Source of the DNA: Acidobacteriota bacterium | GTDB lineage: Bacteria; Acidobacteriota; UBA6911; JACQSX01 | Reading direction: 5' to 3' | DNA: 64,000 nt | NCBI GenBank assembly: GCA_036507075.1 | Contig: DASXQR010000088.1 | Coordinates: forward strand, 2,253-66,252 | In this document: positions 26,388 to 60,021 of the stretch, one piece after another | Numbering within the stretch: the first letter of the stretch is position 1 | Layout of the letters: every line of letters starts with the position of its first letter | Notes under the pieces: generated by a model | Database searches by the model: none | The model's input: the letters and a program-made list of their open reading frames with translations, nothing else | Told to the model about the DNA's origin: nothing | Position numbers and translations under genes: made by a program

Positions 26388-26833
26388 GAAGTCGTAAACG
26401 TAATCGTGGACGTTGACGTGTCACGTGCTCGTAGACGTGGACGGTTTTGAAAAACTTTGCCAAAATAACAAGAAGTTGCCAACAGGTTACGCAGCGCGGC
26501 AGAGCCGCAACCAAACGCGGCATCAGTCATTAGTCATTAGTCATTAGTTATTAGTCATTAGTTAGAGAATCTTGCTAAGAAAACAAATTCCTTATAGAGC
26601 CGCGCAGCGGCGCAAGATTTGTGCCCGGGTGGAGCGAAGCGGAACCCGGGGCCACAATTCTGGCCGCCGCTGTGCGGCTCTATAAGGAATTTGTCTTTTT
26701 CTCCTGGTTGATTTCCTCTCTGTGTAACCTGTTGGCGATTTCTTGTTTTAGAAAGATTTTTGAACTAATGACCAATGACTAATGACCGATGACGTTTGGT
26801 TGTGGCTGTGCTGCACTGTGCCTCTGTGGTGAA
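26388..26833. repeat. Nested repeat cluster: hexamer array, two opposed GCCGCAACCAAA/heptamer elements and a central REP doublet
   Basis: (CGTnnn)n at ~26393-26445; (GTCATTA)n at ~26520-26563; ACAAATTCCTTATAGAGCCGC...GCGGCTCTATAAGGAATTTGT; inverted heptamer array at ~26764-26793. Confidence 0.85.
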
Positions 26834-26942
26834 ATCCCTTTTTCAATAGCAGCCAAACCAGCCCACTACGTAAAAATGTCCAAAAGCCCACATCTGCGGG
26901 CCGGCGAAGTAGAATAGTCTCTCTTGACAAGGAGGTCTTCAA

Positions 26943-28583
26943 ATGAAATCGCTTCCGGCTTTATTCTTGCTTGGGGCTGTGTCTGTGGGTCAGGCTGCCG
27001 GCCAGGGAACGCAGCCGCACAACCACGCGGATCATGCGCATGAAAAACTGGGAAAGGTGAACTTTCCGGTAAGTTGCGCCGGCGGAGTGCAGGCGCAATT
27101 CAGCCGGGCGGTGGCGCTGCTGCATTCCTTCCAGTATGAAGAAGCCGAGCAGGGTTTTCGCCAAATCGCCCAGGCTGATCCTTCCTGCGCGATGGCGTAC
27201 TGGGGCATCGCCATGAGCACCTATCATCCGCTCTGGGTACCGCCGAGCAAAGAGGAACTTGCCAAAGGGGCCGCAGCCGTCGAGAAAGCACGAGCCATCG
27301 GCGCCGGAACCGAACGCGAAAAGGCGTACATCGAAGCCATCGGCGCATTCTACCGCGATCATGACAAGCTTGATCATCGTGCGCGCGCGCTTGCCTATGA
27401 GGGGGCCATGGAGCAGCTTCAGGCGAGGTTCAAGGACGACAGCGAGGCGGCTATTTTTTACGCGCTGGCTCTGAATTCCACCGCGCTTCCCACCGACAAA
27501 ACATTTGCAAATCAGAAAAAAGCCGTGGCCATTTTGAACACGGTGTTCGCGCGGCAGCCCGAGCATCCGGGCATAGCACACTACATCATTCATAATTTTG
27601 ACACGCCCCAGCTTGCCGAGCTGGCACTCCCGGCGGCGCGCGCTTACTCGAAAATTGCTCCCGACTCGGCGCATGCCCTCCATATGCCGTCGCACATCTT
27701 CACGCGCCTGGCGCTGTGGAACGATTCCATCCAGTCCAACCTTGCCTCGCGCGCAGCGGCGCGTCGCTATGCCGGCAGGGCGTTCCCAGGCCGGGTTCAC
27801 TGGGAGGAATTGCATGCGATGGATTACCTGGCTTACGCCTATCTTCAGTTGGGACGCGACACGGACGCCGAGGCGGTGGCGGCCGAGGCGAAGAAGGTGG
27901 AAAAACTGAGCCTGGAAAACTTTGCGGCGGCTTATGCCTATGCGGCGATTCCGGCGCGGTTTGCTCTGGAGCGACGTGACTGGAAGGAAGCCGCGAAGCT
28001 TTCTCCGCAGCCGTCGTCATTCCCGTGGGACAAATTTGGGTTTGCCGAAGCGATATTCCACTATGCCAACGCCCTGGGCGCCGCCCGCCTCCATGATCCG
28101 GCGCAGGCACACCGCGCCATCGAACGCATGCGCGAGCTGCATCGCAAGCTGGTGGATTCAAGGGACGGTTACTGGAGCGGGCAGACCGAAGTGCTTCTGA
28201 AGACCGCCCTTGCGTGGACCGTGCTTTCTGAGGGAAAGAATGACGAAGCGCTCAATCTGATGCAGTCTGCCGCCGACATGGAGGACTCAACCGAGAAACA
28301 TCCGGTCACTCCCGGCGCCATCCAGCCCGCGCGTGAACTGCTGGGCGAAATGCTGTTGCAGCTTCAACGGCCGGCGGAGGCGCTGGCCGCTTTCGAGAAA
28401 TCTCTTGCGAACAATCGAGATCGTTTCAACGGAATCTACGGCGCCGCCCGCGCGTCCAGGCTCGCCGGAAATGACGCCAAGGCAAGGCAGTACTACGCAA
28501 GGCTCTCCTCGCAGGCCCAGGCAGCCAGTCGACCGGAAGTCAGAGAAGCCCGGGAATTCCTGAGCGGCCGGGCAGGCAGATAA
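26943..28583 (+). CDS. Secreted tetratricopeptide-repeat protein
   Basis: LGKVNFPVSC, DPSCAMAYWGIAM, HPGIAHYIIH, HALHMPSHIF; SD AAGGAGG. Confidence 0.88.
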   Translation: MKSLPALFLLGAVSVGQAAGQGTQPHNHADHAHEKLGKVNFPVSCAGGVQAQFSRAVALLHSFQYEEAEQGFRQIAQADPSCAMAYWGIAMSTYHPLWVPPSKEELAKGAAAVEKARAIGAGTEREKAYIEAIGAFYRDHDKLDHRARALAYEGAMEQLQARFKDDSEAAIFYALALNSTALPTDKTFANQKKAVAILNTVFARQPEHPGIAHYIIHNFDTPQLAELALPAARAYSKIAPDSAHALHMPSHIFTRLALWNDSIQSNLASRAAARRYAGRAFPGRVHWEELHAMDYLAYAYLQLGRDTDAEAVAAEAKKVEKLSLENFAAAYAYAAIPARFALERRDWKEAAKLSPQPSSFPWDKFGFAEAIFHYANALGAARLHDPAQAHRAIERMRELHRKLVDSRDGYWSGQTEVLLKTALAWTVLSEGKNDEALNLMQSAADMEDSTEKHPVTPGAIQPARELLGEMLLQLQRPAEALAAFEKSLANNRDRFNGIYGAARASRLAGNDAKARQYYARLSSQAQAASRPEVREAREFLSGRAGR

Positions 28584-28585
28584 GC

Positions 28586-29782
28586 ATGCGACATCCTCGG
28601 ATTTCAGGCACAGAGTTGATGGGGGTTGTCTTCTTCCTGGCATTTGCGTCGTCGATGCTCTGCGCTCAGGGGGTGATTTCGGTGTTTCCGCAGTTTGCGA
28701 GCGGCGGCGGGTGGACGAGCGATATCTTCATTGACAATCAGGGGACTTTGGCAGCGATTATTGATGTGGCGTTTTACGGCGATGACGGCGCTGCGCTCAC
28801 CGTGGACACCACTCTCGGCTCAGGTCCATCTTTTTCGGTCAATCTCAACGGAGGCAACACCAAGCTGGTGCGCGTTACTTCGGGCAGCGCCGTCAAGATC
28901 GGCTACGTCGTGCTCTCGTTTCCCAACGGCGCGTCCGTGCGCGCGTCGGAAGTTTTTCGCTTCGAGCAGAACGGCGTGGTGATTTCAGCGCTCGGCGTCG
29001 CCCAGCAGTTTCCTTTGACGAGCTTCTCTTTTCCGGCCGAGGTGGATCTGGCACGGGGAGTTAACACGGCCCTTGCCATTGCTAACGGCCCGTTTGAAAC
29101 CGGCGGCAGCAAGGCCCAGATGTGCGTCGTCAATCTGGTCAAGAGCGATGGAAGCCTGCAGGGCACCGCGATCGTAAATTTTGGCGCGGGCGAGCACTTG
29201 TCCAAATTTCTCAACCAGGGCGGCCTGTTCCCCGGCTTGGATGGCTTTTCCGGAACTGTCAGCATCTCGGCGGCTCGCCCCTTCGGCCTGGTGGCGCTGC
29301 GTCAGGACCAGGCCGCATTCGGCTCGGTGTCGGTGGACGCCGGGCCGATGGTGGCGCCGTTTCTTCTCAACACGGCCGCGATTCCTGAGGTCGAACCGAA
29401 CAACTCCCGAAGCCAGGCCCAGAGAATCAGCGGCGCGGCGGTGATCGCCGGAACCATTTCTGTTCCCGGAGATGTAGATTACTTTCAGTTTACAGGTAAA
29501 CAGGGAGACGTTCTCAGCGCTCTTGTCTCGACCGTGTCCTTGACCTCAGGCCTCGACTCGGTGCTGTTTCTTGTTAACTCCGATGGAACGGTCGTTGCTT
29601 CCAATGATGAGAACGGGTTATTCTTCAGCAACGACTCATTTATACAGACGGTTCTTCCCGCCGACGGCACTTACTATCTCGCCGTGACGGATTTCTCCAA
29701 TCGCGGCGGGCCGAACGGTACGTATCGATTGCATTTGCAGTTCCTGACGCCGGCTGTAAAACAATTCACCCCACAGCGTTAG
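28586..29782 (+). CDS. Secreted protein with C-terminal PPC (pre-peptidase C-terminal) domain
   Basis: EVEPNNS, GDVDYFQF, LDSVL...ASNDE, DGTYYLAV; N-terminal FPQFASGGGW domain. Confidence 0.8.
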   Translation: MRHPRISGTELMGVVFFLAFASSMLCAQGVISVFPQFASGGGWTSDIFIDNQGTLAAIIDVAFYGDDGAALTVDTTLGSGPSFSVNLNGGNTKLVRVTSGSAVKIGYVVLSFPNGASVRASEVFRFEQNGVVISALGVAQQFPLTSFSFPAEVDLARGVNTALAIANGPFETGGSKAQMCVVNLVKSDGSLQGTAIVNFGAGEHLSKFLNQGGLFPGLDGFSGTVSISAARPFGLVALRQDQAAFGSVSVDAGPMVAPFLLNTAAIPEVEPNNSRSQAQRISGAAVIAGTISVPGDVDYFQFTGKQGDVLSALVSTVSLTSGLDSVLFLVNSDGTVVASNDENGLFFSNDSFIQTVLPADGTYYLAVTDFSNRGGPNGTYRLHLQFLTPAVKQFTPQR

Positions 29783-29805
29783 CCGAACCCACCCCACGGC
29801 GCTAG

Positions 29806-30035
29806 CCGAACCGCGCGCGTAAGCAAGCGGACCCTCTCCGAATGCGGAATGCAGAATGCGGAATGCGGAATGATAGATAATGAAAGATAAAGAAAGATCC
29901 TTGATGGCAAAGACTCCTGCCGGGCAGGAAAATCACATTCCCACATTGAGAAATCCGCTCTCGCATTCCCCATTCTACATTCCCAATTCCGCATTCCGAA
30001 AGGGTCCGCTGGCTTACCCGGATTATTCACAAACT
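29806..30035. repeat. REP pair enclosing inverted GAATGCG heptamer arrays, cut by a solo MITE end
   Basis: (GAATGCG)n at ~29840-29872 vs (CATTCCN)n at ~29935-30000; CCCGGATTATTCACAAACT at 30017-30035. Confidence 0.85.
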
Positions 30036-30073
30036 CAGCCCAATACCGTTCGGTGAAGTTGCCCCTTTTGCTT

Positions 30074-30652
30074 TCACCGCCGAGGCGCCGAGCACACCGA
30101 GGTTCGCGGAGTGGAGCCGTCGTTGGCCCGCGCCGCGCGCACTTGCTGCCCGACCCGGGAACCCCATTCCTGACCGGCAGAAGTGCGCCCTCCGGGGCCC
30201 AATACCGCCAAGTCGGTTTGAAGCTGCGCATCATATCCAGGAGACGAATCGGGAAACCCTGTGGCCAGGTCCGGAAACTCCCCGGCTAGCACAGCGTGCG
30301 CCGCGCTGGAGGCTGCCGCGTAGAGATCGCCCTGCGGGGGCGCGTCTTTGGAAGGCACGAGCGCGTGTTCGCGGCCTGTGTGTTCGCCCTGACGTGACAT
30401 GATGCCGTTTACCGCGTCATAGATGGCGACATTGACCATCGCATACAATCGCGCAGCCACTGCATCGCTTCCCTGCTTGACACGCACGGTTTTCAGCGCA
30501 AGCTCATTCCATGAGCACATCGGGTCCAGTCCGGGTGCAGGTGGGCTGGATCGGGCGGCCGGGCTCCCCATGGCCGCAGCGAGCAGGACGATGGCAAACG
30601 ACAGAACTCTGGCGAGGAGCCTTCTCGAGCGAATTGTGCGAATGACGTTCAT
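30074..30652 (-). pseudogene. N-terminal fragment of a vanadium-haloperoxidase/PAP2-like protein
   Basis: WNELA..., ARLYAMVNVAIYDAVNGI, AAASSAAHAVL, RANDGS; the frame then enters a repeat arm; catalytic C-domain absent. Confidence 0.8.
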
Positions 30653-30850
30653 GACCCCCTCCTTTTTCTCACGAGGGTTCCGGCGTCGAATCGATATGGC
30701 TGTTTCGGTTCGACACGGGCTGTTCGTGGAGAAAAGGTATATCAATGAGCAAGCTTCAAAGAGGGTTCAATTTCTATTCAAATTTTTTTCAAAAGGCTTT
30801 CAAAATCGTTACCGGAAAGATGCCATTTCCTGACGCTTCAGACACTGGCT

Positions 30851-30920
30851 GGGAGCGCACGCTTCCAGCGTGCTATCCGGCAACTGACTCGCAACAGGCA
30901 CGCTGGAATCGTGCGCTCCC
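30851..30920. repeat. REP doublet (REPIN-like)
   Basis: GGGAGCGCACGCTTCCAGCGTGC-N24-GCACGCTGGAATCGTGCGCTCCC. Confidence 0.85.
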
Positions 30921-30985
30921 GGGATTGGAACAAAGACGACTGGATTGACGTCTAAAGTGCTGACCCTGGCATTGGAGCGTGGATT

Positions 30986-32629
30986 ATGACGTCAAAAAAA
31001 GCACCCTTCCTTTATTTCTGCCTCGCGCGTCCCAACTGTTCTCTTCGGCTCTGTTACCTGCTGATTCTCACTGGGACTCTGCTTCCATCGACCGTTGTTC
31101 ACGCACAGAGTCCCAGGGTCGTAGTGGTCAATCCTTCAAACGGGGAGCTAAGGCGTGCCGCGCATCGGCTTCGGATTTCTCCGGAGCACCTTCTGCAGGC
31201 CCGGCAGGCGCTGGAGAGGGCAACGGATGTGTGCATCGACTGGATCCAGGAAACGCCGGAAATAACAGGCCGGATGCCGGAAATGTACAGCCTTCCACAT
31301 CTCTGGACGCGATTGAACCGCCCCAAAGCCGCAAGTCAACTCGTTTCCATCCTCGAAGCGCTCCGCGCCCGCGCGGCGCGCGCAACCAGCGCGGATGTCT
31401 ACAGAACATTGACAGAAGCGGCGCAGCCGCTGGTGGGTCCGCTCTGTTTCCTGGATCTTCCCAAGGCCCGTCAGATCGTTGAGCAATGGCCGCCGCGCCC
31501 GAAGGATGCCGACGCGGGATCTCCATCTGCGCCTAGCCGAGCCCGTTACAACGAACTGCACCGCGCGCTGTGGCTCAGTGTTTCCGCCTTCGACCCGGAT
31601 GCTGCATGGGCATCCGTGAACTCGCTGCAAGAGGGTGTGCCCGAAGACGCTCCGGCGGCCTACATCGCGCAAAAACTGCTGGAGAGGAACCGGCGCGCCG
31701 ATGCGGAAAAAGTGATCGACGAAACGCTGCGGAATTTCGGCATGCTGACAACCAAGAATGCCAATAGCTTTTCGGCGTTTCTGGCAGGAATTGGCTGGGC
31801 CTTCCCCGACCGGTTTGAGCGCGCGCTCGTTCAGGCATTGCCCCTTCTTATCCAGATAGAGGCACGCGCCCCGTCCATTGAATTGGATGTACGTGGCCAA
31901 AAGTTGCATCTAACGCCCGGAGAGAATCTTTTTATCAATACCTTGCGTTCGATCCAGAGCCGGCCGGACGCCGTGGCAAGGGTTTTATCGGCAGTTCCCG
32001 AATTGCGCTCAAAGCTTGATGCCGCAGGTGGAATCGATTATGTCCTCAATCCGGAGATAAAGTTTGAGAACAACCTGCGGCAGAATCCGTACGACTTCGG
32101 TCAAAAAATGACATCCGACCTTGTCGCCTCCGGATCGAACACTCCGGCAGGACTGCGAGCTGCTCTTCAGCGACTGCCTGACGTGCCGGACCAGTTCCTG
32201 GTCGCGCTGTCAATCGCCCAGTCACAAAATTACAACGAACCGGAGCTTAGTCATGAGGCACTCGAAGTTGCCAGGACCCTTCTGATGAAATTAGAACCCT
32301 TGAGCACGCGCGCGGAGAAATGCGGCGTGTTGCTGGATGTGTGGCTCCGCTGCGAAGGAGAAATCGACAATGGCCTGCTTCAGGAAGCTTGGACTATTCT
32401 CAGCCAGCTCCGCAAAGCCGAGGCCGAGCCGCCTGCGCGAATTCCTGAAACCGGGCAAGCAACGGCAGAACGCCTGCGTCAGGCAGCCGACCAGTTTGAG
32501 ATTACGGCCGTCGTTTACCGGAGTGCGGCTGATTTTAGTGGAGCCTTGCAGCACGTCAACACGATCCCGGATGCAGTTCGCCGTTTTCGCGCACTGATCC
32601 GGCTGGCCGAAGTGCTTTCGTCGAACTGA
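30986..32629 (+). CDS. Hypothetical secreted alpha-helical protein
   Basis: 547-aa ORF with a signal-like segment ending VHA-Q. Confidence 0.7.
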   Translation: MTSKKAPFLYFCLARPNCSLRLCYLLILTGTLLPSTVVHAQSPRVVVVNPSNGELRRAAHRLRISPEHLLQARQALERATDVCIDWIQETPEITGRMPEMYSLPHLWTRLNRPKAASQLVSILEALRARAARATSADVYRTLTEAAQPLVGPLCFLDLPKARQIVEQWPPRPKDADAGSPSAPSRARYNELHRALWLSVSAFDPDAAWASVNSLQEGVPEDAPAAYIAQKLLERNRRADAEKVIDETLRNFGMLTTKNANSFSAFLAGIGWAFPDRFERALVQALPLLIQIEARAPSIELDVRGQKLHLTPGENLFINTLRSIQSRPDAVARVLSAVPELRSKLDAAGGIDYVLNPEIKFENNLRQNPYDFGQKMTSDLVASGSNTPAGLRAALQRLPDVPDQFLVALSIAQSQNYNEPELSHEALEVARTLLMKLEPLSTRAEKCGVLLDVWLRCEGEIDNGLLQEAWTILSQLRKAEAEPPARIPETGQATAERLRQAADQFEITAVVYRSAADFSGALQHVNTIPDAVRRFRALIRLAEVLSSN

Positions 32630-32782
32630 GATTCACTGCCTCGTGCGTTAGGCGCGTATTGACCGAATAATACGAGTGCCATTAGTCGCGTTTCTCCGGG
32701 CCGCTACAAGCGGCCTGAGAGTTGATGCTAAAATTCTGGTCCGGAGTGAATTTTTTCATATTTCAGCATCCGGTTTCCAGTC

Positions 32783-33457: not shown

Positions 33458-33749
33458 GCGAAGCTCAGGGCTTCGCCCTGCCTTTTGGACATTTCACAGT
33501 CTGGTCCGGCTGGATTCCGGCGGTGTCAGAGCGCGAGTGTAAGTGAGGGGCCCGTCTGGCTTCCATTGCACCCTGCTTCCGGCAGAGGTAAAATTGCTCC
33601 ACATCGATCAAATCAAGTCTCCTGCCGAAACCCAGGTGAGACCGTTCAGACCGGTTTTGATCTGCGCACCGGTAGGCAGATCTAAAGGAACACAGCCAGG
33701 CAGTTGTTATAATCTGAGTTAAGAAACCACAGATGTTACAGGAGGAAGT

Positions 33750-34817: not shown

Positions 34818-34925
34818 GGCAGACTCGGTAGCAAGCGGGCCCCCGGCGTCATTGGTCATCTGTCATTGGTCATCGGTCCGCGGGCGCCGGTCCATTCAGT
34901 ATGAAAATTCACGAGGCTTGGTGTC

Positions 34926-38449: not shown

Positions 38450-38527
38450 GGGATGGCTCCGTGGAAGAGAAAAACTTACCATCTTTGCGGCCTTTGTGGT
38501 GAAAGATCTTGAACCACAAAGGCACAA

Positions 38528-38646
38528 CGCGGCAGAGCCGCAACCAAACGCGTCATCGGTCATCAGTCATTCGTCATTAGTGTCATTAGTCATTCGTCAT
38601 TAGTTAGAGAATCTTGCTAAAAAAACAAGAAATCGCCAACAGGTTA
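38528..38646 (+). mobile_element. Fixed-frame element with GTCATYR heptamer core, flanked by CACAA direct repeats
   Basis: CGCGGCAGAGCCGCAACCAAA...AACAAGAAATCGCCAACAGGTTA; CACAA at 38523-38527 and 38647-38651. Confidence 0.75.
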
Positions 38647-38704
38647 CACAAGGTCACAAAGACCCGCGGATCATCGCTGCGGCGAACGCGGGGACCATAA
38701 TTCA

Positions 38705-39742
38705 TTATTTCGGCGGCAAAACGCGCTTAGGGATCTTCAGCGCCATCGAGCCGGCGACGGTGACGACTTCATACTCGCCTTGATAGCCGATCAGAAGGTG
38801 CGCGGCCCACGGTTCCAGCTTGTAATCTTCGACGAGCCACTTTGCCATGTCGCTGGTGGCAAGTTGCAGCCCGCGATTCAGCGAGCTGGCAAACTCCGGC
38901 TGGCTGCCGACGCTGATGATGTAATCTGACGTCTCCACGCGCGGGCCCGTCAGATTCGCCTTTTTGCGAATCTGCGTCGTGAATTCCACGTCCAGCGACG
39001 TCTCAATCCCTGTGCCGGTCGGCTCGCCGTCGGCCTGAAGCGCGTGCCCATCGCCGATGAATAACAGCGCGCCGGGATGGTACACGGGAAGGATCACCGT
39101 GGAACCTTCGCCGATTTCGTTGTAATCGAGATTTCCGCCGTAGGAGCCCGAAGGGGCAGAAGTAGGCGCAAATTCGCCTTCAGGAGCAACCCCCACACAG
39201 CCAAGCATCGGCTTGGCCGCAAATTCCAATTGCATCGCCCGGCTTGACGGCTCCCGCAGGCGCACGGTCTTACGCTCCGGATCGATGTCCCATGGCACCA
39301 GATTGGAGCGGCCCGGACGAATCAGGTCGTCCTTGTACCGATTGGGATAGAGAGTTTCAATCGAATCGGGAGCGAGCGAAAACAGGCCGAGACGGTAAGC
39401 CGACCAACCCCACTTGCGATTCAACTTTAACTTTGTAAATCGCACCAGAAGCGCGTCGCCGGGCTCGGCGCCGTCGATGTAAAAGGGCCCGGTAAGCGGA
39501 TTACTCGGCGTTGAAAGACGCGCATCCTTTTCATCCTGTCCGCCGGCATCCAGAGTCTTAGTCGCGACCGTGTCACCCGGGCGCACGCGCTTGAGGACAG
39601 GATGTGCGGCCGAGAAAGTGTGATGATACTTAGTGGCAGCTACCTGATGAGTCTCGGCCATGACTGGTCCTTCCAAGAACAGAAAAAGCGTTATCGGGAA
39701 TAAAGAGAAGATCGCCCACCGGAAAGCAGTTTTCAATTGCAT
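38705..39742 (-). CDS. Acetamidase/formamidase family protein
   Basis: NPLTGPFYIDGAEPGD, PMLGCVGVAP, GGNLD, GDGHALQADGE. Confidence 0.92.
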   Translation of the reverse strand: MQLKTAFRWAIFSLFPITLFLFLEGPVMAETHQVAATKYHHTFSAAHPVLKRVRPGDTVATKTLDAGGQDEKDARLSTPSNPLTGPFYIDGAEPGDALLVRFTKLKLNRKWGWSAYRLGLFSLAPDSIETLYPNRYKDDLIRPGRSNLVPWDIDPERKTVRLREPSSRAMQLEFAAKPMLGCVGVAPEGEFAPTSAPSGSYGGNLDYNEIGEGSTVILPVYHPGALLFIGDGHALQADGEPTGTGIETSLDVEFTTQIRKKANLTGPRVETSDYIISVGSQPEFASSLNRGLQLATSDMAKWLVEDYKLEPWAAHLLIGYQGEYEVVTVAGSMALKIPKRVLPPK

Positions 39743-39757: not shown

Positions 39758-39838
39758 TTGAGCACGAATTACACGAATTTCACGAAGTAATTAAAGAAGA
39801 TTCGTGAAATTCGTGAAATCCGTGAAATTCGTGCTCAA
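39758..39838. repeat. Inverted 9-mer array hairpin (CACGAATTT type)
   Basis: TTGAGCACGAATTACACGAATTTCACGAA ... TTCGTGAAATTCGTGAAATCCGTGAAATTCGTGCTCAA. Confidence 0.9.
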
Positions 39839-40068
39839 CCCCCGAGAAATATCCTTAACAACTTCCACTTATATATCCGAAAATAAAGCATAAATTAAAT
39901 CACGTCCGTTGGGCCGACAAAAAACTGACGCGGATCACATATCCCCCAGCGTCCTGAACAGGTAGAATTTTCTCCATCCTTTCATAACTGGACTCATTTT
40001 TTGAAGCACTGAACGCGTTTGGCGCCGAAGGAACGCAAGAGAAGGGCGGAGGCTGAGGAGAGTCCACC

Positions 40069-46240: not shown

Positions 46241-46333
46241 GCGGAGAGACGGCCTGAGGGCCGTCTCAGGGAATCTCCCGGGATGGGCCTGCCGTCGACT
46301 TCGCCTGAGACGGCCCTCGGGCCGTCTCTCCGC
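46241..46333. repeat. REP doublet between convergent genes
   Basis: GCGGAGAGACGGCCTGAGGGCCGTCTCAGG ... CCTGAGACGGCCCTCGGGCCGTCTCTCCGC. Confidence 0.85.
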
Positions 46334-46343
46334 ATGACTAAGG

Positions 46344-48044
46344 TTAAAACGCATCCGGCCGGCCGGCGATTTCATCCAATTGGCGGCGCGTGTAGGAACC
46401 GAGGCTTCTGAAATCCAGATTGACGTAATTCTGCACCCACTGCAGGGAAATCTTGCACGCCTTCTGGTAGCTTTCTTCCGCTCCGGCATTGTCTTCATCG
46501 GCAGGAGCGCCGCGCAGATGAGCCACGATGTCCTGTGTCTCTTCCTGCAGCAGCCGCTTTGCCAGAGGAAAATCATGGACGTCGGCGGAATCGGTGCAAC
46601 GCACACGGTGTCGAATCCGCTGTGCGATTTGCGCCACCGAGATCCGCGCCGTCGCCAGGTCTTCCATTAGAGCCGGGTGAATTCCAGGCTTGCCCGCCAG
46701 GCTGTCGATTCCCTTGGCTCCGCGACCATTGAGCCAGCCTTCCAGGTACTCAACCAGCATGCGGGCGTTGCGACGTGTTCCAGCAAGCGTGATCGGTCCT
46801 GCAGGAACTCCGATCCGGACAGGATAATTCTCCGGTTCGGCCATTTCCCGCGTTGGTTTCCAACCCGAGCCGCGCAACTGTCGAAACGGGTCGCCTGCCG
46901 TTTTCATGTGAAAGATATGGGCCACCCATCCGCGCAGGAATCCCTGGCGCGCTTCCCATTCTTTGTCTGTGCGAATGGCCGCGGCGGCCGCCTTGTTTAC
47001 CTCGTCGTCCTTGCTTGGAAGAGCGGTCGCCATGCCTCCGATGGGAACAGCGCCGCGCTTCAGGCATACCGCTACCAGGCGTCGGAATATGTTGGCCAGA
47101 AAATCAGTCGTTTTGATATCGACCCCAAAGCGGTCCGGCCACACCGAGGCCGGATCATTCATGACAAACTCCAGAAGACTTGCTTTGAAATCCCAGCGCG
47201 CCGCATTCAGTCCCGCGGCATACGGGCCCAGGGCAAACAACATCTCTTCCATTTGATACGCGGCGGGCAGGGACTCGATCAGCAGAACAGCGCGGATCAC
47301 CGCGTTCTTCAGAAAGGGAACCTGTTCCTGCGCCGCCTGAAAAAAATCTCTCCAGTATTTCGCCTCCGCCGCGGATTCAAGCTTCGGCAGGTAAAAATAG
47401 ATTCCCTGCCCGCGCTCCACCTGGGCCCGTCCGGCGTGAAACAGCGTAAGCGCTGTCCCCAGGATGCTGGCGGGAACAGGCCGCCCGCCGATTGTCACAT
47501 CGGGTTCATCAAGGTGAATCCCGCGCTCGCGATGCATGAAGAAAGGAAGCTCGCCTTCCGCAATGCGGTAGGTTTTTCCTTTTTTTTCATCTTTGTATGT
47601 GAGCGTGCGTTCCACTGCCCCTTTGCGGTTCCACGCGGCGCGAACCGTGTCTTCAAAGCGGTGACCGGCAGAATCTTCGTCGTCGTCCAGGTCCCCTTCG
47701 GCGCGAACGCCATCAGGGCCGGGATTGAGCGCGTTGATGAACATTCCCGTCACTGAAGCGGGGCCTGATATCTCTATACCGGGCCTTTTCAAATCCTCCG
47801 GTACCCACAGGACACGCCAGTCTGCTGCGGCCTCGATGCTGAGAGGAAATTGTCGCGGCTGGTTTCCCGCGTGGGCCAGCTTGAGAACTTCGGCACGTTT
47901 TTGTCTCAGTTCATGAATGAGGGGAGTAAATCTCTGATTCACGTATGTCAGGAAACGGACGAAATCGGGGGTGAAGAGATCGGCGGCGCCTTCCAGGGCC
48001 GCGAATTGAATTGCGCGACTTTGAGCAGCCGGTTCAGTTGACAT
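46344..48044 (-). CDS. aceB: Malate synthase (A-like, divergent)
   Basis: EISGP, INALN, YFYLPKLES, LIES, GLNAARWD, GGMA, LMEDLATARIS. Confidence 0.88.
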   Translation of the reverse strand: MSTEPAAQSRAIQFAALEGAADLFTPDFVRFLTYVNQRFTPLIHELRQKRAEVLKLAHAGNQPRQFPLSIEAAADWRVLWVPEDLKRPGIEISGPASVTGMFINALNPGPDGVRAEGDLDDDEDSAGHRFEDTVRAAWNRKGAVERTLTYKDEKKGKTYRIAEGELPFFMHRERGIHLDEPDVTIGGRPVPASILGTALTLFHAGRAQVERGQGIYFYLPKLESAAEAKYWRDFFQAAQEQVPFLKNAVIRAVLLIESLPAAYQMEEMLFALGPYAAGLNAARWDFKASLLEFVMNDPASVWPDRFGVDIKTTDFLANIFRRLVAVCLKRGAVPIGGMATALPSKDDEVNKAAAAAIRTDKEWEARQGFLRGWVAHIFHMKTAGDPFRQLRGSGWKPTREMAEPENYPVRIGVPAGPITLAGTRRNARMLVEYLEGWLNGRGAKGIDSLAGKPGIHPALMEDLATARISVAQIAQRIRHRVRCTDSADVHDFPLAKRLLQEETQDIVAHLRGAPADEDNAGAEESYQKACKISLQWVQNYVNLDFRSLGSYTRRQLDEIAGRPDAF

Positions 48045-48069: not shown

Positions 48070-48138
48070 GATTTCACCACAAAGGCACAAAGGGCACAAA
48101 GAATCTTTTCGTGTTCCTTGTGTCTTCGTGGTGAAATC
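48070..48138. repeat. Inverted 8/9-mer array hairpin (CACAAAG type)
   Basis: GATTTCACCACAAAGGCACAAAGGGCACAAAG ... CCTTGTGTCTTCGTGGTGAAATC. Confidence 0.85.
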
Positions 48139-49109: not shown

Positions 49110-49283
49110 AGTAAGAATCTTCTCACCACAAAGACACAAAGGTCACAAAGTCAGACGAGGGGCTGGCAGAGTCTGGTCAGGTCTCAAAGTGAGCAGTGGC
49201 AGCGGATTCCAAGGTGACCAGACTCTGCCAGCCCCTCGTCTGACTTTGTGACCTTTGTGTCTTTGTGGTGAGAAATTCTTACT
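49110..49283. repeat. Long perfect inverted repeat (60-bp arms, 35-nt loop)
   Basis: 49120-49179 is the exact reverse complement of 49215-49274; extends 9 bp further past a 1-nt bulge. Confidence 0.95.
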
Positions 49284-49829: not shown

Positions 49830-49841
49830 ACAATCTCCCTG

Positions 49842-50123: not shown

Positions 50124-50229
50124 TATAGGAGGCCCCCATATTCATGTATCGCTCCTCCTGAAATTGACTTTATGTTAAGTTTTCCGTCCGTCAAGACCAG
50201 GAACCTACGAAGGCTGGAAAAAACCCGTC

Positions 50230-50394
50230 GGAATGGGGAATGCCGCCAAAAATGCGGAATGCGGAATGGGGGAATGCGGAATGGGGAATGCAGAATGGAA
50301 ATTCTACTCAGGCCTGATTCTTCAAAACAGACGAAATTGCTTCGCCATTTCGCATTTTGACGGCATTCCGCATTTTGGGGGCATTCTGCATTCC
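50230..50394. repeat. Inverted GAATG(C/G)G heptamer arrays
   Basis: (GGAATGC/GGAATGG)n at ~50230-50300 vs (GCATTYY)n at ~50345-50394, abutting the symporter stop codon. Confidence 0.85.
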
Positions 50395-51765: not shown

Positions 51766-51848
51766 ATCGGAGGCTCGCATCGTATCAAAAGAGGCTTTGA
51801 AACGTTAATCCTTCTTGCGCAAACGCCGTGCCTGCAATATAAACGCCT

Positions 51849-51980
51849 CGCATCTGCCACGAAGGCACGAAGACACGAAGGACAACGATTAAGTTAGAAG
51901 TGGCCATTTGTCCGACAACTTGGATCGATGAGAAGTGTCACTTCAAAATAGAGGTTCTTCGTGCCTTCGTGGCAGATGCG
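51849..51980. mobile_element. ~135-bp palindromic element (CACGAAG arms); homologous copy inverted at 52599-52737
   Basis: Shared arms TGCCACGAAGGCACGAAGACACGAAG and shared interior GACAACGATT.AGTTAGAAGTG...TGAGAAGTGTCACTTCAAAAT. Confidence 0.85.
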
Positions 51981-52021
51981 GGTTGCGAGTTAACGAGTAG
52001 CGAGTACGGGAGGATAGCGGG

Positions 52022-52588: not shown

Positions 52589-52783
52589 CGGTTGGGGATT
52601 TGCCACGAAGGCACGAAGACACGAAGAATCGCTATCCATTTTGAAGTGACACTTCTCATAACTCGATTCAGGTTGCCGGAGAAGTGGCACTTCTAACTCA
52701 ATCGTTGTCCTTCGTGTCTTCGTGCCTTCGTGGCAAACTACCGGCGGAGGGTCCGCTTGCTTACGCGCGCGGTTCGGATAGGG

Positions 52784-53848: not shown

Positions 53849-53858
53849 GGAGATCGCC

Positions 53859-54533: not shown

Positions 54534-54538
54534 GCCCA

Positions 54539-54676
54539 CAAAAGATTGAACCGCCAAGAACGCCAAGAACGCGAAGCCACTGATTGACCGAGTTTGGTTG
54601 TCAGTGGCTGAGCTCCAATACAGGGGCCAGTTAAAAGCTTGGCGCTCTTTGCGTTCTTGGCGGTTCAATCTTTTTT
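54539..54676. mobile_element. 9-mer-arm hairpin element with GCCCA direct repeats
   Basis: AAAAGATTGAACCGCCAAGAACGC ... GCGTTCTTGGCGGTTCAATCTTTT; GCCCA at 54534-54538 and 54677-54681. Confidence 0.8.
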
Positions 54677-54680
54677 GCCC

Positions 54681-56231
54681 ATGGATCTCAAAGACAAACT
54701 CGAAGAGCTGGAGAAGCGAAATCGCGCCGCCGAACTGGGCGGGGGGCAGGCGCGGGTGGAGCGCCAGCACTCGGCGGGCAAGCTTACAGCGCGCGAGCGG
54801 GTCGAGCTGCTGCTGGACGAAGGCTCCTTCAATGAAGTCGACAAGTTTGTCACTCACCGCTGCAATGATTTCGGGATGGACCAGCAGAGAATCCCGGGCG
54901 ACGGCGTGGTCACCGGCTATGGCAAGATCGACGGACGGCTGATGTTCGTCTTTGCCCAGGATTTTACCGTCTTTGGCGGGAGCCTGAGCGAAACCTATGC
55001 CCAGAAGATCTGCAAGATCATGGATCTCGCCCTCAGGATGGGCGCTCCGGTGATCGGTTTGAATGATTCAGGCGGGGCGCGCATTCAGGAAGGCGTCGTC
55101 AGTCTGGGCGGCTACGCCGATATTTTCCTGCGCAATACGCTGGCTTCGGGTGTGGTGCCGCAGATTTCCGCAATCATGGGGCCGTGCGCCGGCGGGGCCG
55201 TTTACAGTCCGGCCATCACCGACTTCATTTTCATGGTCCGCGATACCAGCTACATGTTCATCACCGGCCCGGATGTGATCAAGGCGGTGACCCACGAAAC
55301 GGTCACCAAGGACGAGCTGGGTGGAGCTTCCACGCACAACGAAACCAGCGGCGTGGCGCACTTTGCGGCGGCCGACGATGCTTCCTGCCTGGCGATGATT
55401 CGCGAGCTGGTCTCCTACCTTCCGCTGAACAACAGGGAAGATCCGCCGCGCTACCAAGCCGGCGATGCCGCGGATCGGGAAGATGCTTCGCTCGATCAGC
55501 TCATCCCGGCCGATCCCAATCTTCCGTACGACATCAAAGACCTGATTCGCCCGGTGGTGGACGAGCATCATTTCTTTGAAGTCCAGGAAGGGTTCGCGCA
55601 AAACATGGTGGTTGGACTGGCGCGGCTGAACGGACGCTCGGTGGGAGTGGTGGCAAACCAGCCGGCCGTGCTCGCGGGAACACTGGACATCAACGCATCG
55701 GTCAAGGCGGCGCGTTTTGTGCGCTTCTGCGATGCGTTCAACATCCCGCTGGTCGTGTTTGAAGATGTTCCCGGTTTTCTGCCCGGAGTGAATCAGGAGT
55801 ACGGAGGCATTATCCGCCATGGGGCCAAGCTGCTTTACGCTTTTGCGGAGGCCACCGTTCCCAAGATCACAGTGATTGCGCGCAAGGCTTACGGCGGAGC
55901 CTACTGCGTGATGGCGTCAAAGCACATCCGCACCGACGTGAATTACGCCTTCCCCACGGCGGAAATCGCCGTGATGGGCCCCGAGGGCGCCGTCAGCATC
56001 CTGCACCGCGCCGAGCTGGAGCGCGCCACGGATCAGGAGGCCTTCCGGCGCGGCAAGATCGAAGAGTTCCGCAACAAATTCGCCTCGCCTTACATCGCCA
56101 GCGAACGGGGCTATATCGACGAAGTAATCCTGCCGCGCCACACCCGCCCCAGGCTGATCCAGGCCCTTGAAATGGCCTCCAACAAAAGAGACAAGAACCC
56201 GCCCAGGAAGCATGGCAATATTCCGCTGTAG
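54681..56231 (+). CDS. pccB: Acyl-CoA (propionyl-CoA) carboxylase beta subunit
   Basis: [46 protein letters not shown]. Confidence 0.95.
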
Positions 56232-56992
56232 AATGTTCGTGGTCTGTTGTCCGTTGTCAGTTGTCCGTGGTCAATGGCTATCGAGTTCATTCCCTTCAGG
56301 CGTCAAGTTTTGCCAGTTTTTGTTGTGCCGATTGAGCGCAGGTAAGCATTCAGTCTGGGGGCCAATTCGTCTATTATTGGCTTCAGTTGCTGAACTTGAG
56401 CTTCGGAAAGCAATTGGCGTCGAAACACCCTCCTTAACCAGTGCTTTGTCTCATTAAGCGAACCGCGGGCGGTCCGAACGAACCGCCGGTTGTCCGGAAA
56501 GCTGCCGCGCCCTGTTCCCTCGGCAATGTTTGATCCGATGCTGTCAGCAGCCGACACAAGTTGCTTGCCCACCGTAAACCGAGCAAAGGTCTGCCATTGA
56601 AAGACGATGTTCCAGATTCGATCCGCCAGGTCTTCGGCGAGCCGATAAACATCAAGCTGCTCGAAATTCGTTCTCGTCGTCATTCATCGCCTCCTGCGTA
56701 CACAACCGCCCGAATCGGAAATTTGCGAAATTATTTTTGCCGGAATACGATTTAGCCATGATTTGGGTCCGTTGTCAGTGGTCCGTTGTCAGTGGATCGT
56801 CGTCAGTGGTCCGTTGTCAGTGGTCACGTTGTTGTTGCCCATTGTTAGCGGTGAGGATGTTACCTCGCGTGCAAACGCCGTCTTGGCTCACCTCTGCTTT
56901 GAGTTGTGAGAGGAGGGTCCCTCGAAATTTGAAGGTTCTATCCAACTGGACCACTGACCACGGACCACTGACCACGGACCACTGACAACATT
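56232..56992. repeat. GTC(C/A)GT(T/G) heptamer arrays bracketing the four-helix-bundle gene
   Basis: Arrays at 56235-56276 and 56767-56822 (same sense) and 56952-56986 (inverted). Confidence 0.9.
56303..56683 (-). CDS. Four helix bundle protein (23S rRNA-IVP / Avd-like family)
   Basis: FEQLDVY, QLVSAADSIGSNIAEG.GR, ARGSLNET; SD AGGAGG. Confidence 0.93.
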   Translation of the reverse strand: MTTRTNFEQLDVYRLAEDLADRIWNIVFQWQTFARFTVGKQLVSAADSIGSNIAEGTGRGSFPDNRRFVRTARGSLNETKHWLRRVFRRQLLSEAQVQQLKPIIDELAPRLNAYLRSIGTTKTGKT

Positions 56993-56993
56993 T

Positions 56994-58469
56994 ATGTTTA
57001 AAAAGATCCTGGTTGCCAATCGGGGCGAAATCGCCGTCAGAATCCTGCGGGCTTGCCGTGAGATGAAAATCACGGGCGTGGCGGTCTATTCGGACGTGGA
57101 TGAGACGGCGTTGCATGTTCGCATGGCTGATGAGGCGTATCGCATCGGCGCGGCTCCCGCCGGCGAGAGTTACCTGCGCGCGGATCGAATCATCGAAACG
57201 GCGCGGCGCTGCGGCGCCGAGGCGATCCATCCCGGCTACGGATTCCTTTCCGAAAACGCGGAATTTGCCGGGCAGTGCCGCTCGGCCGGTATCACCTTCA
57301 TCGGCCCGCCGCCGGAGGCAATGCGAAAGCTGGGCGAAAAGATTCCGGCGCTGGAAATAGCGCGCGGCGCCGGCGTTCCCACTATTCCCGGATCAAACGG
57401 AGCCGTTCGGGAACTGACCGCCGCGCTCAAGATCGCGCTGGAAATCGGATATCCGGTGATGCTTAAAGCCTCGGGAGGCGGCGGAGGCAAAGGCATGCGC
57501 CTGGTGGGTTCCGAAGAAGAGTTGCGCCGGGTCTGGGATGTCACGCAGAACGAAGCGGCATCGTCGTTCGGCAATCCTGTTGTTTTTCTGGAAAAGTACC
57601 TTGTCCATCCGCGCCACATCGAGATCCAGGTGCTGGCCGATCATCACGGCAATGTCCTCTACTTCCCCGAGCGCGAATGCTCGCTGCAGCGCCGCCACCA
57701 GAAAATCGTGGAGGAGTCCCCGTCGCCGGCCGTCGATCCGGCGCTGCGAAAGAAGATGGGAGAAGCCGCGGCGCTTCTGGCCTCAACGGCGGGTTATCAA
57801 AACGCCGGCACGGTGGAATTTCTGATGGATGCGGACGGGAAGTTTTTCTTTCTTGAAATGAACACGCGCCTGCAGGTGGAGCACCCGGTCACGGAAATGG
57901 TGACCGGGGTCGATCTTGTTCATTTACAAATCCGCATCGCGGCAGGCGAGCAGCTCCTCCTGGGCCAATCCGGGATCGATGCGCGCGGCCATGCCGTCGA
58001 GTGCCGCATCTACGCCGAGGACCCCGGCAATCAGTTCATGCCTTCGCCCGGGACAATCGCATCGTTGGAAGAGCCGGCGGGCCCCGGGATACGAAACGAC
58101 ACGGGAATATATCCGGGCGCGGAAATCTCGCTCTATTACGATCCGCTGATTTCCAAGCTGATTGCGCATGCGGGCACCCGACAGGAAGCGCTGGCGCGGG
58201 CGGTTCGGGCGCTGCGGGAGTACCGGATTTCAGGGATTCGAACATCGATCCCGTTTCTGAGCCGGCTGCTGCAGGATCCCCGCGTCGCGAGTGGCCGGCT
58301 GCACACCGGACTGGTGGCGGAAATCCTGGAATCCTCCGATGGGACCGAAGACGAAGGATGGCGTGAAGCGCTCATTGCCGCCGCCCTGATGTACCAGTCG
58401 CCGCAGAAACGCCGCCTCGCTCCCGAGCAAAGTTCCTGGCGGCAGGGTTTCTGGGAACACATGCCGTGA
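56994..58469 (+). CDS. accC: Biotin carboxylase subunit
   Basis: ILVANRGEIA, HPGYGFLSEN, GGGGKGMR, EMNTRLQVEHPVTE. Confidence 0.95.
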   Translation: MFKKILVANRGEIAVRILRACREMKITGVAVYSDVDETALHVRMADEAYRIGAAPAGESYLRADRIIETARRCGAEAIHPGYGFLSENAEFAGQCRSAGITFIGPPPEAMRKLGEKIPALEIARGAGVPTIPGSNGAVRELTAALKIALEIGYPVMLKASGGGGGKGMRLVGSEEELRRVWDVTQNEAASSFGNPVVFLEKYLVHPRHIEIQVLADHHGNVLYFPERECSLQRRHQKIVEESPSPAVDPALRKKMGEAAALLASTAGYQNAGTVEFLMDADGKFFFLEMNTRLQVEHPVTEMVTGVDLVHLQIRIAAGEQLLLGQSGIDARGHAVECRIYAEDPGNQFMPSPGTIASLEEPAGPGIRNDTGIYPGAEISLYYDPLISKLIAHAGTRQEALARAVRALREYRISGIRTSIPFLSRLLQDPRVASGRLHTGLVAEILESSDGTEDEGWREALIAAALMYQSPQKRRLAPEQSSWRQGFWEHMP

Positions 58470-58975
58470 AATTTGAAGCGCGTCTGGAGAACGGCCAAAG
58501 GCATAGCGTCGAGGTGAAGCGCCAGGGCGGCCAACTTCAGGTGTTGATCGACGGCGATCCGGTGAGCGTTCGCTTCCGCAGGGTAAACGACAATCAGTGC
58601 CTGCTCGAACTGGGCGGCAAGATCGTCGATGCGGTCATCCACCGCAATGGCGTCGACCAGGAGGTGCTGATCGCGGGCATCACGCACCGGCTGCGGCTGA
58701 TCGATCCCAGGCTGCAGCCTGACCCCGGAGAAGTTTCAACGGGCGGACCGCTCGCCGTGAAGGCCCAGATGCCGGGAAGAGTGGTGCGGGTTCTGAAGGC
58801 AACGGGCGACAATGTGGAAAAAAACACCGCCGTGGTGGTGATAGAAGCGATGAAGATGCAAAACGACATCCGCGCCCCCCGCGCCGGCGTCATCGCAACG
58901 CTTGAGGTGAAAGAAGGAGAATCCGTGTCGGCGGGGCAACTGCTGTTTGAAATAGCCTCCGAACCGCGCGCGTAA
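58466..58975 (+). CDS. Biotin carboxyl carrier protein
   Basis: EAMKMQN biotinylation motif; GTGA overlap with accC. Confidence 0.93.
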   Translation: MKFEARLENGQRHSVEVKRQGGQLQVLIDGDPVSVRFRRVNDNQCLLELGGKIVDAVIHRNGVDQEVLIAGITHRLRLIDPRLQPDPGEVSTGGPLAVKAQMPGRVVRVLKATGDNVEKNTAVVVIEAMKMQNDIRAPRAGVIATLEVKEGESVSAGQLLFEIASEPRA

Positions 58976-58993
58976 GCAACCCGGACGGTCCCT

Positions 58994-59644
58994 CTACGGC
59001 TGCGGCTCGGCCAGGCCGCTGGCTACCTGGAGGTACAATTCGCGCTCGCGCACCCACAGCTCGTAATGCCGCCGCAGCCCGTAGAGCGATGTCGCCAGCA
59101 TCAGCAATGCCAGAACATACAGCAAGGTTCCGAGCTGCGAGTCGACCTCGGTGGGAAAGTATGCCACCAGCTTGCGCTCGAAGCGGAGAAGGAACAGTGG
59201 CACGGGCATGAGCACCAGCAGAATAATGTTGGCCAGCAGGCCTGCCTTGAATTGCCCCATGGAAAGCTGAATGTGCAGCAGCGCGCCCGCGTTGTCCCGC
59301 AACTGCCGGCTGCGCAGCGACACCTCGATGCGGCGCCACAGCGAATGGAGCAGCGTCAGGCCCACAAACACCGCGCAGATCAAAAAGAAGAGCGCCAGCC
59401 CCTGGGCGCTGATCAGCAGGATGAGCCGTCCGGTGGAACTCTTGATCGGCTTGCCGAAAAGGAGCGACAGTTCGTAAATGAAGAACACTCCGCTGTAGGC
59501 GGAAAGCGGCAGAAGCGCCAAAAACACCCGCAGGCCGTTCAGAGTACGGATCTGGCGCGGTAAATCTTTGCTGATCCGGCCCAGAATCCAGCCCATCAGC
59601 AGGACGGCGGATCCTGCAATCAACGCCAGGTCCCAGTAACGCAT
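58994..59644 (-). CDS. Hypothetical multi-pass membrane protein
   Basis: About five hydrophobic helices. Confidence 0.75.
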   Translation of the reverse strand: MRYWDLALIAGSAVLLMGWILGRISKDLPRQIRTLNGLRVFLALLPLSAYSGVFFIYELSLLFGKPIKSSTGRLILLISAQGLALFFLICAVFVGLTLLHSLWRRIEVSLRSRQLRDNAGALLHIQLSMGQFKAGLLANIILLVLMPVPLFLLRFERKLVAYFPTEVDSQLGTLLYVLALLMLATSLYGLRRHYELWVRERELYLQVASGLAEPQP

Positions 59645-59696
59645 GCCGCTATTTTAAACCCGGCCCCGCGCCGAAGATAGCTCTGTGTTCCCTGTG

Positions 59697-60021
59697 TAGC
59701 AAGTTAGCAACTTCTTGTTTTTTAGCAGGGTTTTTAAAACCGTTCACGTCAAGGACCACGTCTCACGTTCACGAGCACGAGCATGTCAACGTCCACGCGG
59801 ACGATCACGTCGACGGTTACGTCTAAAGTCTTGCACGGTGCGCCTAACTAAGCTTCAGAGGAATTAGAGCTGAATGTTGTCGAAATCATCGATCTCGGAG
59901 GTGGACGTTGGCGTTCTCGTAATCGCAGGACGTGGAGGTTGACGTGATCGTGCTCGTAGACGTGAGGCGTGGTCGTTGACGTATTCGTGGACGGTTTTTT
60001 GGTTGCGGCCCGTGGCCGGGC
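59697..60021 (-). mobile_element. Fixed-frame element with inverted hexamer arrays as core
   Basis: Minus strand: GGCCGCAACCAAA-(ACGnnn)n-spacer-(nnnCGT)n-CTGCTAAAAAACAAGAAGTTGCTAAC. Confidence 0.75.

Follow-up and report, generated by a model that had tools for sequence, protein, structure and literature searches.

Elements of the IS200/IS605 group and the palindrome-associated transposable elements (PATEs) have no terminal inverted repeats, make no target duplication and carry unlike ends with a hairpin near the end. IS200/IS605 elements insert beside a fixed short sequence, and their non-autonomous copies keep the ends and vary inside. In IS110/IS1111 elements the ends are not inverted repeats either, and insertion is site-specific, into repeats such as the repetitive extragenic palindromic (REP) sequences. 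The bacterial interspersed mosaic elements (BIMEs) of E. coli combine short motifs in varying order between genes, one of these motifs being a REP hairpin, and some carry a site for integration host factor (IHF). Elhai and colleagues (2008, Genome Res 18:1484) are said to have described in cyanobacteria small dispersed repeat (SDR) elements, hairpins of ~21-27 nt that nest inside heptamer repeats (short tandemly repeated repetitive sequences, STRR) and other repeats. The REP families described in PMC3733652 carry a tag, a stem that may measure no more than 5 bp and a brief unpaired tail (CCA in many); insertion into palindromic targets occurs in some of them, and the CGTC type has no dedicated adjacent transposase. 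PMC3116915 treats the REP doublets called REPINs together with the REP-associated tyrosine transposases (RAYTs), the best-studied model, and describes IS608 briefly. In this study we analyzed a stretch of 64,000 nucleotides of an Acidobacteriota genome (contig DASXQR010000088.1, positions 2,253 to 66,252; hereafter the window, meaning this whole stretch), in which a prediction made from the sequence alone had placed five copies of a small repeated element between positions 26388 and 60021.

The source of the window is a 6.1-Mb draft genome of an uncultured soil Acidobacteriota in 233 contigs, with 56% G+C and a completeness of 95.7%, which a sequencing-run search traced to five soil DNA runs and to no RNA run. 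In our best reading the elements work like REP and PATE elements without being members of the REP families; small non-autonomous repeats with other repeats as their targets are, as a kind, already known. Small bacterial repeats such as REP, REPIN, BIME and miniature inverted-repeat transposable elements (MITEs) are known mostly from Proteobacteria and cyanobacteria, and here they are met in Acidobacteriota, in a lineage whose intergenic DNA is largely built from a few modules with a fixed head and tail, interchangeable cores, an exact landing point and no duplication. Within the limited library that we searched, no description of these Acidobacteriota elements was found.

A modular family of intergenic elements

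The five window copies belong to a large, modular, genome-wide family of small non-coding intergenic elements. They are present where the original prediction had placed them, and the motifs that define their shared ends occur far above expectation: the left motif CGCGGCAGAGCCGCAACCAAA has two exact matches in the window (26495 and 38528) against 0.01 expected, and the right motif has four (26467+, 26725-, 38624+ and 59697-, the last with three mismatches) against 0.00. The interiors differ as it had described, with GTCATTA-type heptamers (GTCATTR) at 26521-26562, 26764-26793 and 38559-38604, and hexamers of the CGTnnn type (period-6 ACGNNN/NNNCGT) at 26393-26450 and 59750-59990. Genome-wide, the left motif has 92 matches at up to three mismatches, and a looser pattern combined with array-like upstream sequence gives 191 heads.

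The head, 21-24 nt in length, consists of a tag ending in AG (ACAG, GCAG or TTAG), a GC hairpin of 5-6 bp with a 3-nt loop, and the sequence AACCAAA. It is followed by a core of one of at least four kinds, namely a run of heptamers, a hexamer-periodic inverted repeat, a double hairpin (“S1”) or a CGCAGAGG palindrome. The hexamer cores come in three or more length classes, and every one is a long inverted repeat with a central region between its arms. Sorted by core, the heads comprise 60 hexamer, 41 S1 and 33 heptamer cases and 57 others, among them the CGCAGAGG palindromes. At the far end stands one of two tails, T1 (...AAAAACAAGAAGTTGCCAACTTGTTAC, ending in AACAAGAAGTTGCCAACTTGTTAC; 89 copies) or T2 (...AATTCTCATGGTTAGTAGT, ending in AATTCTCATGGTTAGTAGTAC; 38 copies). 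Complete elements number 16 for heptamer core with T1 (90-128 bp), 25 for S1 with T2 (mode 148 bp) and 18 for hexamer core with T1 (98-340 bp), and many truncated, interrupted and chimeric copies of the frame exist besides. Under a loose definition of the head, one lies within 420 nt upstream of 48 of the 79 assessable T1 tails and of 32 of the 35 assessable T2 tails, which bears out the predicted fixed frame around a swappable core. Head and tail sequences are unrelated and terminal inverted repeats are absent; the asymmetric ends had thus been read correctly.

The tag belongs to the element and not to its surroundings. Read by eye, it is TTAG in 22 of 25 S1 copies, and AG precedes the hairpin (as ACAG or GCAG) in 15 of 16 heptamer copies, even in A-type CACAAAGG arrays, the remaining copy having ACAA.

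With REP/REPIN-RAYT systems the elements share an intergenic stem-loop with a tag and a short unpaired tail (here AACCA), possible stems of 5 bp, a position inside palindromic repeats as in some published families, and copy numbers from dozens to hundreds that are confined to closely defined groups of related genomes. Like a REP sequence, the head is an extragenic palindromic unit present in many copies (55 exact, 191 by the looser pattern), at the short end of the 20-40 bp range. Unlike in those systems, the tag is NNAG (ACAG, GCAG, TTAG) rather than GTAG or CGTC, with only the final AG in common with GTAG. The heads are also mostly single, in contrast to REPINs, with 10 opposed neighbouring pairs less than 400 nt apart (8 facing, 2 facing away), and the candidate mobile unit, made of head, core and a separate, unrelated tail, is much larger than a REP.

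Insertion point in palindromic arrays

Palindromic arrays of degenerate 6-9-mers (CACARAGG, CGCAGAGG, CGCGAAGAA, GGAATGC, CACGAATT, GTCCGTTGTCAGTG) abound in the window and throughout the genome; a loose array-end motif, CACCRCNRNGRN, has 1351 matches, of which 200 pair up as palindromes at distances of up to 400 nt. Within this landscape the elements land at one point, directly after the first unit CACCRCNRAGRC of a palindromic 8/9-mer array of the CACARAGG type. In 137 of the 191 heads, 2-7 nt separate the end of the first array unit from the hairpin pattern, most often 4 nt (76 cases), and the elements thus hold a fixed position in the 8/9-mer arrays, in support of the original prediction. 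Some heads directly follow a preceding tail, with no array unit between them (26490/26491 in the window; contigs C83, C167 and C201).

The palindromic build of the arrays allows an occupied arm to be compared with its intact partner. An inverted match to the first array unit lies within 260 nt downstream in 21 of the 59 complete elements. Twelve of these are simple by eye (2 heptamer, 4 S1 and 6 hexamer), two are the two arms of one palindrome on contig C130, which carry different heptamer variants at the same point, and seven hold further elements or read ambiguously. In all 12 simple palindromes the reverse complement of the intact arm equals the first unit joined to the post-tail sequence, with zero bases duplicated. 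Since the intact arm is the sum of left and right flank, the inserted piece runs from the tag to GTTAC (T1) or to TAGT (T2).

This comparison also bears on the 5-bp direct repeats that had been reported around the two cleanest window copies. They are literally there (CACAA at 38523-38527 and 38647-38651; CTGTG at 26720-26724 and 26816-26820), but they do not hold as a target duplication: within the predicted boundaries and read by eye, an exact 5/5 repeat occurs in 2 of the 11 comparable heptamer copies, those that have the 5-3-5 hairpin, and both are the window's own; the TTAG with which S1 copies start is not array-like, and no base is duplicated in the 12 simple palindromes. The “duplication” is the element's own ACAG tag, which imitates an array unit. 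A MITE derived from a DDE transposon was likewise rejected as a candidate, since the ends are unlike and the 5-bp repeat is exact in 2 of 11 copies only and absent in the arm comparison.

Both flanks show one array type (A or G) in 36 of the 41 elements that could be classified, the other 18 of 59 being unclassifiable (Fisher 1e-6), and S1 copies that are nearly identical are found in A-type as well as in G-type arrays. The flanks go with the locus and the element does not: near-identical elements stand in arrays of different local type. From the fixed point, the undisturbed other arm and the near-identical elements in different arrays we conclude that gain or loss of the unit is precise and involves it whole. 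The chances are about even, in our estimation, that the element is mobile, non-autonomous and site-specific and leaves no target duplication.

An insert could also spread without any transposase, by homologous recombination or gene conversion via the array units, with the mosaics arising by unequal exchange among dispersed repeats. We consider this unlikely, though it is the main rival to a mobile element. It would fit a site that is always bounded by repeats (CACCRCNRAGRC on the left, ACARAGG units on the right), the lack of duplication, a genome in which no dedicated enzyme was found, and the many truncated and chimeric copies; S1 elements, moreover, lie mostly in G-type arrays, several of them with the same right-flank unit AGAGGACACAG (by eye), which could be co-converted flank. 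However, the homology available is only ~12-20 nt long and imperfect, and near-identical S1 elements occur in both array types, the flanks matching the local type on either side in 36 of 41 cases. Nor does exchange through array units sit well with heads that abut tails with no array unit between them, or with two heptamer variants at the same point in both arms of the C130 palindrome.

Inheritance of the cores

The original prediction had the core replaced or freshly synthesized as tandem repeats. That it is made anew at each insertion, for example by rolling-circle copying, has in our estimate almost no probability, even though different cores do occur in the same frame and the number of heptamers varies from ~3 to ~9. 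The 16 complete heptamer elements align over their full length with the same unit order and a median identity of 87%, and they differ mainly in heptamer number, which is mostly four. The head with a heptamer core recurs in genomes of another genus of the same family, and G001 and G003 have it (here and below, G000 is the source genome, G001, G002, G003 and G004 belong to its family and G005 to its order). The hexamer cores are conserved inverted repeats whose arms of ~43 nt are nearly alike between copies (by eye), the median identity among S1 copies is 96%, and heptamer arrays are met outside the frame as well, at 34846 in the window and at one locus in G003. The heptamer “microsatellite” is inherited as part of one subfamily, with its length changing by slippage, and is not made anew. 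For annotation this serves as a warning, in that such runs, whether of heptamers or of hexamers, belong to dispersed elements and are neither independent microsatellites nor phase-variation tracts.

Parts of the frame are also met in other arrangements. In G003, locus L141 (~1250-1500) holds a nested palindrome with outer arms of (GCAGTAGG)n and inner arms of heptamers GCGTCATTAGTCATTTGTCAT, without the hairpin head; the same gene end in G001 has a head plus heptamers. S1-type double hairpins (GGAGAGACGGCCTGAGGGCCGTCTC...GAGACGGCCCTCAGGCCGTCTCTCC) without a head are found at 46241-46368 in the window and at one locus in G001 (L052), and the S1 module may be an independent repeat.

Candidate enzymes and mechanism

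If the elements are mobile, the conserved head and tail would be the sites needed in cis and the cores would be passengers, the unit being moved by a site-specific enzyme supplied in trans. The likeliest kind of enzyme would be a single-strand DNA transposase of the HUH/Y1 type, as in IS200/IS605, their PATE derivatives and the REP/RAYT systems. This step is drawn by analogy, and we give it a lower probability than mobility and site specificity as such. The analogy with IS200/IS605 and PATEs is reasonable in that the elements have no inverted repeats, no duplication, a 5' hairpin, a fixed site and kept ends with a varying interior. They differ in that neither an autonomous copy with these ends nor TnpB (PF07282; 0 matches in G000) was found, that there is no clear 3'-end hairpin, that the 5' hairpin lies ~4 nt from the boundary, and that the target is a 12-nt repeat unit and not a 4-5 nt motif.

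The likeness to IS110 that the original prediction had put beside that to HUH systems was not supported. Non-inverted ends and site-specific insertion into repeats are shared with IS110/IS1111, but no gene-bearing copy was found and the IS110 DEDD transposase domain (PF01548) has no match in G000, while control genomes were matched. Y1 transposases, on the other hand, are present, with 12 Y1_Tnp matches in G000. They occur in 38 of 41 genomes of the class, and their mere presence is therefore uninformative.

Several points weigh against a mobile element moved in this way. In line with the predicted non-autonomous nature, no copy encloses a gene, and no head-to-tail pair 600-4000 bp apart holds a transposase. 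The genes between neighbouring heads are housekeeping genes; eight of nine tested have ordinary Pfam families (RNA-binding RRM, radical SAM, PhoX, ECF sigma factor, symporter, NtrC-type regulator, VTT and MetE-like) and one has none. In this draft of 233 contigs no head comes within 900 nt of any of the 12 Y1 genes, and none of these genes is flanked by heads as RAYT genes would be; among the listed matches of G001, G003, G004 and G005, which leave out 8 heads and 64 Y1 matches, Y1 genes and exact heads never come within 15 kb of each other. The orientation of the elements relative to local GC skew shows no significant bias, at 56:37 (p = 0.06) on short contigs with a weak skew (median 0.012), and for S1 alone it is 15:5 (p = 0.04, uncorrected, on the same weak skew). 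The hairpin stands only ~4 nt from the element end, against a hairpin-to-end distance of ~19 nt in IS608.

The predicted secondary structures and the comparative data add to these points. The stem has at least 4 bp in 139 of 191 heads and changes on both stem sides occur in only a handful, so that support for the hairpin comes mostly from sequence conservation, covariation being weak. By eye, the tail has no covariation-supported hairpin; it has a weak CTTG...CAAG stem in which changes on the 5' side have no counterpart on the 3' side. No empty orthologous site was shown, the nearest genomes being ~72-75% identical even in genes; the orthologues of the window gene at 38705-39742 in G001, G003 and G005 have no conserved neighbour and are followed by other repeats, and 80 metagenome loci with 63-83% amino-acid identity gave no head, no tail and one array end. 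Finally, the pairing and flank counts rest on our own regular expressions, several counts were read by eye, and the gene calls come from a crude caller of our own (4102 genes, 81% coding) with over-extended starts.

Two other enzyme types were seen in G000. PF04986 (IS91-type, Y2) matches two gene fragments, and PF00078 has two matches, the strong one being an intact group II intron reverse transcriptase/maturase; neither the IS91-type fragments nor the intron reverse transcriptase (L136 on C10, L137 on C81 and L134 on C146) has a head or tail nearby. A spread through an RNA copy and reverse transcription, with the hairpin and ...ACCA acting as a tRNA-like minihelix as proposed for cyanobacterial SDR, could draw on this intact enzyme and on a head that ends in a stem followed by AACCA. 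We nevertheless judge it very improbable, because orientation is unrelated to the neighbouring genes, poly-A tracts and other marks of retro-insertion are absent, and the reverse transcriptase is of the ordinary intron maturase type with no heads near it.

It is also conceivable, though rather unlikely, that the elements represent a hitherto undescribed class of very small mobile elements that carry cassettes. Head and tail would then serve as cis ends without inverted repeats or target duplication, homing to the first array unit or to the end of a previous copy and in this way building up nested mosaics. The enzyme, an unlinked HUH protein or a new one, would not be encoded adjacent to them, the head might be read as a tRNA-like minihelix (stem plus ACCA), and the arrays would be landing pads or by-products. 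Should a mobilizing enzyme be found, it would be possible to learn how a site-specific, single-strand-type system moves 90-340 bp of passenger DNA from which it is not encoded nearby, and the family would become a test case for repeat-targeting repeats that create mosaic intergenic regions.

Several of the Y1 genes (on contigs C122, C85, C201, C107, C32 and C223; L011-L016) are flanked on both sides by GC-rich, REP-like double hairpins of their own, and runs of 7-8-mers (CAGTCTGT, GGAATKG, GATTGAC) lie beside some of them. The genome thus seems to hold more than one system of the REP/RAYT type, each separate from the others.

Gene context and function

By our gene calls, 77 heads lie in co-directional gaps, 42 in divergent gaps and 27 in convergent gaps, against a background of 1628, 593 and 547 gaps of more than 50 nt, respectively. 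The remaining heads are at contig edges (26) or inside called genes (19 of 191). In co-directional gaps the two head orientations are nearly balanced (37 vs 40), and the palindromic arrays are distributed over the gap types like intergenic DNA generally. This spread of heads and arrays makes them a poor fit to terminators or to elements that act on the neighbour's transcript, and the gene context looks like that of selfish or neutral DNA. Terminators were rejected as an explanation also because arrays and heads show no gene-3'-end bias and because flanking A or T runs occur in 17 and 15 of 110 short palindromes.

A further possibility is that the modules are kept by selection as sites for nucleoid proteins, as transcript-end structures or as small RNAs, in a BIME-like manner and with their spread a secondary matter; we regard this as decidedly unlikely. 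The head is conserved across the family and its order, and only 19 of 191 heads lie inside genes, a confinement to intergenic DNA that is read from crude calls with over-extended starts. The hexamer element at 59697-60020 folds as one long, very stable hairpin (z = -7.35). The heptamer element, in contrast, is no more structured than shuffled sequence (z = -0.69), and selection for a function at genes would not predict the missing bias in gene 3' ends and orientation (37 vs 40 in co-directional gaps, 42 of 146 in divergent ones) or arrays that are spread like general intergenic DNA. In a search of Rfam 15 the whole window gave no match at the gathering score, and three regions searched at E up to 1 gave chance-level hits only. 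Moreover, one gene has different downstream repeats in G000, G001 and G003, and a second gene has different ones in G001 and G003. As in BIMEs, a small set of motifs is combined mosaically in intergenic DNA. Unlike BIMEs, the elements have a fixed head and tail with a variable middle, a fixed point in the array and no preference for gene 3' ends.

S1 elements are found mostly in arrays of the G type (CACCACAGAGGC), even though ends of the A type are the more frequent ones in the genome, and 15 of 35 are in divergent gaps against 21% of all gaps by the crude gene calls. A target preference, co-transfer of flanks or a promoter effect could account for these biases.

Distribution among related genomes

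The exact head sequence GCNGCNNNGCNGCAACCAAA has 55 matches in G000, 39 in G001, 31 in G003, 14 in G004, 14 in G005 and none in G002. Each of 35 other relatives from the same class has 0-1 (G015, 0), and the same sequence read backwards has no match in any of the 41 genomes searched. The complete frame of head, heptamers and T1 is found once among the five relatives, in G003.

A scan of the contig collection with an earlier pattern gave no match. A second pattern, for the junction of head and heptamers, gave 22 loci in named genomes, 21 of them in two metagenome-assembled genomes of soil Acidobacteriota and one in Nostoc. The Nostoc sp. contig (L031) carries a palindromic heptamer array just past a stop codon, with the unit GTCATTG (TTGGTCA in another phase) and without the GC hairpin. 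It is an ordinary cyanobacterial heptamer array whose likeness to the Acidobacteriota elements is limited to the heptamer unit. The elements thus resemble STRR and SDR sequences in having tandem heptamers of the same unit and hairpin elements nested in repeats; they differ in belonging to another phylum, in the hairpin head that the Nostoc match lacks, and in combining hairpin, core and tail as one unit at a fixed position in the host repeat. In viral contigs the tail T1 had no match; a degenerate head pattern gave at least 116 loci there, with one match each among the loci listed, which we take as background.

Copies and further repeats in the window

All five window copies are where they had been predicted, with some corrections to their extent and parts. 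The first, given as starting at ~26393, reaches back to ~26349. This copy (26349-26490, plus strand) is a 3' half of the hexamer type with part of the central region, the reverse hexamer arm (an NNNCGT run) and a T1 tail AACAAGAAGTTGCCAACAGGTTAC at 26467-26490, has no head on its 5' side, and matches the centre, right arm and tail of ~240-bp hexamer copies. A heptamer element (26491-26586, plus strand) abuts this tail, with the tag GCAG, its head at 26495-26515, six heptamers at 26521-26562 and a tail that is cut at 26586.

Where that tail stops, a distinct palindromic repeat, ATTCCTTATAGAGCCGC...GCGGCTCTATAAGGAAT (26587-26697, unstranded), begins, which fills the space between two heptamer elements and has more copies in the genome beside heads and tails. 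Its sole match in Rfam is the hairpin-type family MIR5534, below threshold at 38.6 bits against a gathering score of 79. On the other side lies a complete heptamer element on the minus strand (26725-26819; 92 bp from hairpin to tail), with the tag ACAG, a degenerate head TGCAGCACAGCCACAACCAAA, ~4 heptamers and a T1 tail, its head flanked by a first array unit TTTCACCACAGAGGC on the same strand (26820-26837).

The fourth copy lies in a small palindromic array at 38489-38523 (unstranded), composed of GGCCTTTGTGGTGAA, a loop and AACCACAAAGGC, the insertion site being the forward arm. This complete heptamer element (38524-38648, plus strand; 120 bp from hairpin to tail) has the tag ACAA, the head at 38528-38548, ~8 heptamers at 38549-38608 and the tail region at 38609-38648, and it is followed by the array continuation ACAAGGTCACAAAGACC (38649-38666, plus strand). 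The fifth copy is a complete hexamer element of ~324 bp on the minus strand (59697-60020), with a head near 59997-60020, a forward hexamer arm, a centre of ~90 bp, a reverse hexamer arm and a T1 variant at 59697-59719, the same build as in the ~240-bp hexamer copies elsewhere in the genome. Its head is a variant, CCCGGCCACGGGCCGCAACCAAAA. Because its left flank is an oppositely oriented array unit, CCTTTGTG, that end is not at the usual site.

Within the range of the five copies there is also a heptamer array without head or tail, GCGTCATTGGTCATCTGTCATTGGTCATCGGTC (34846-34878, plus strand), which means that heptamers exist outside the frame too. In T1, for example at 38618-38640 and 26461-26483, an A-run is followed by AAACAAGAAGTTG, one mismatch from the IHF consensus, WATCAANNNNTTR; this is a lead only, and the IHF-like match is lost in another T1 subtype, AAATCGCC.

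Palindromic arrays are found in the window at 7334-7511, 9474-9609, 12236-12477, 29804-30035, 39758-39841, 48070-48136, 49120-49274, 50229-50394, 51854-51991, 52594-52779, 54545-54669, 56239-56989, 61391-61501 and 63744-63897. The two arms match within a locus and the unit types differ between loci, where they also include CACAAAGG and CACGAAGG, and other repeats are often nested centrally in these arrays.

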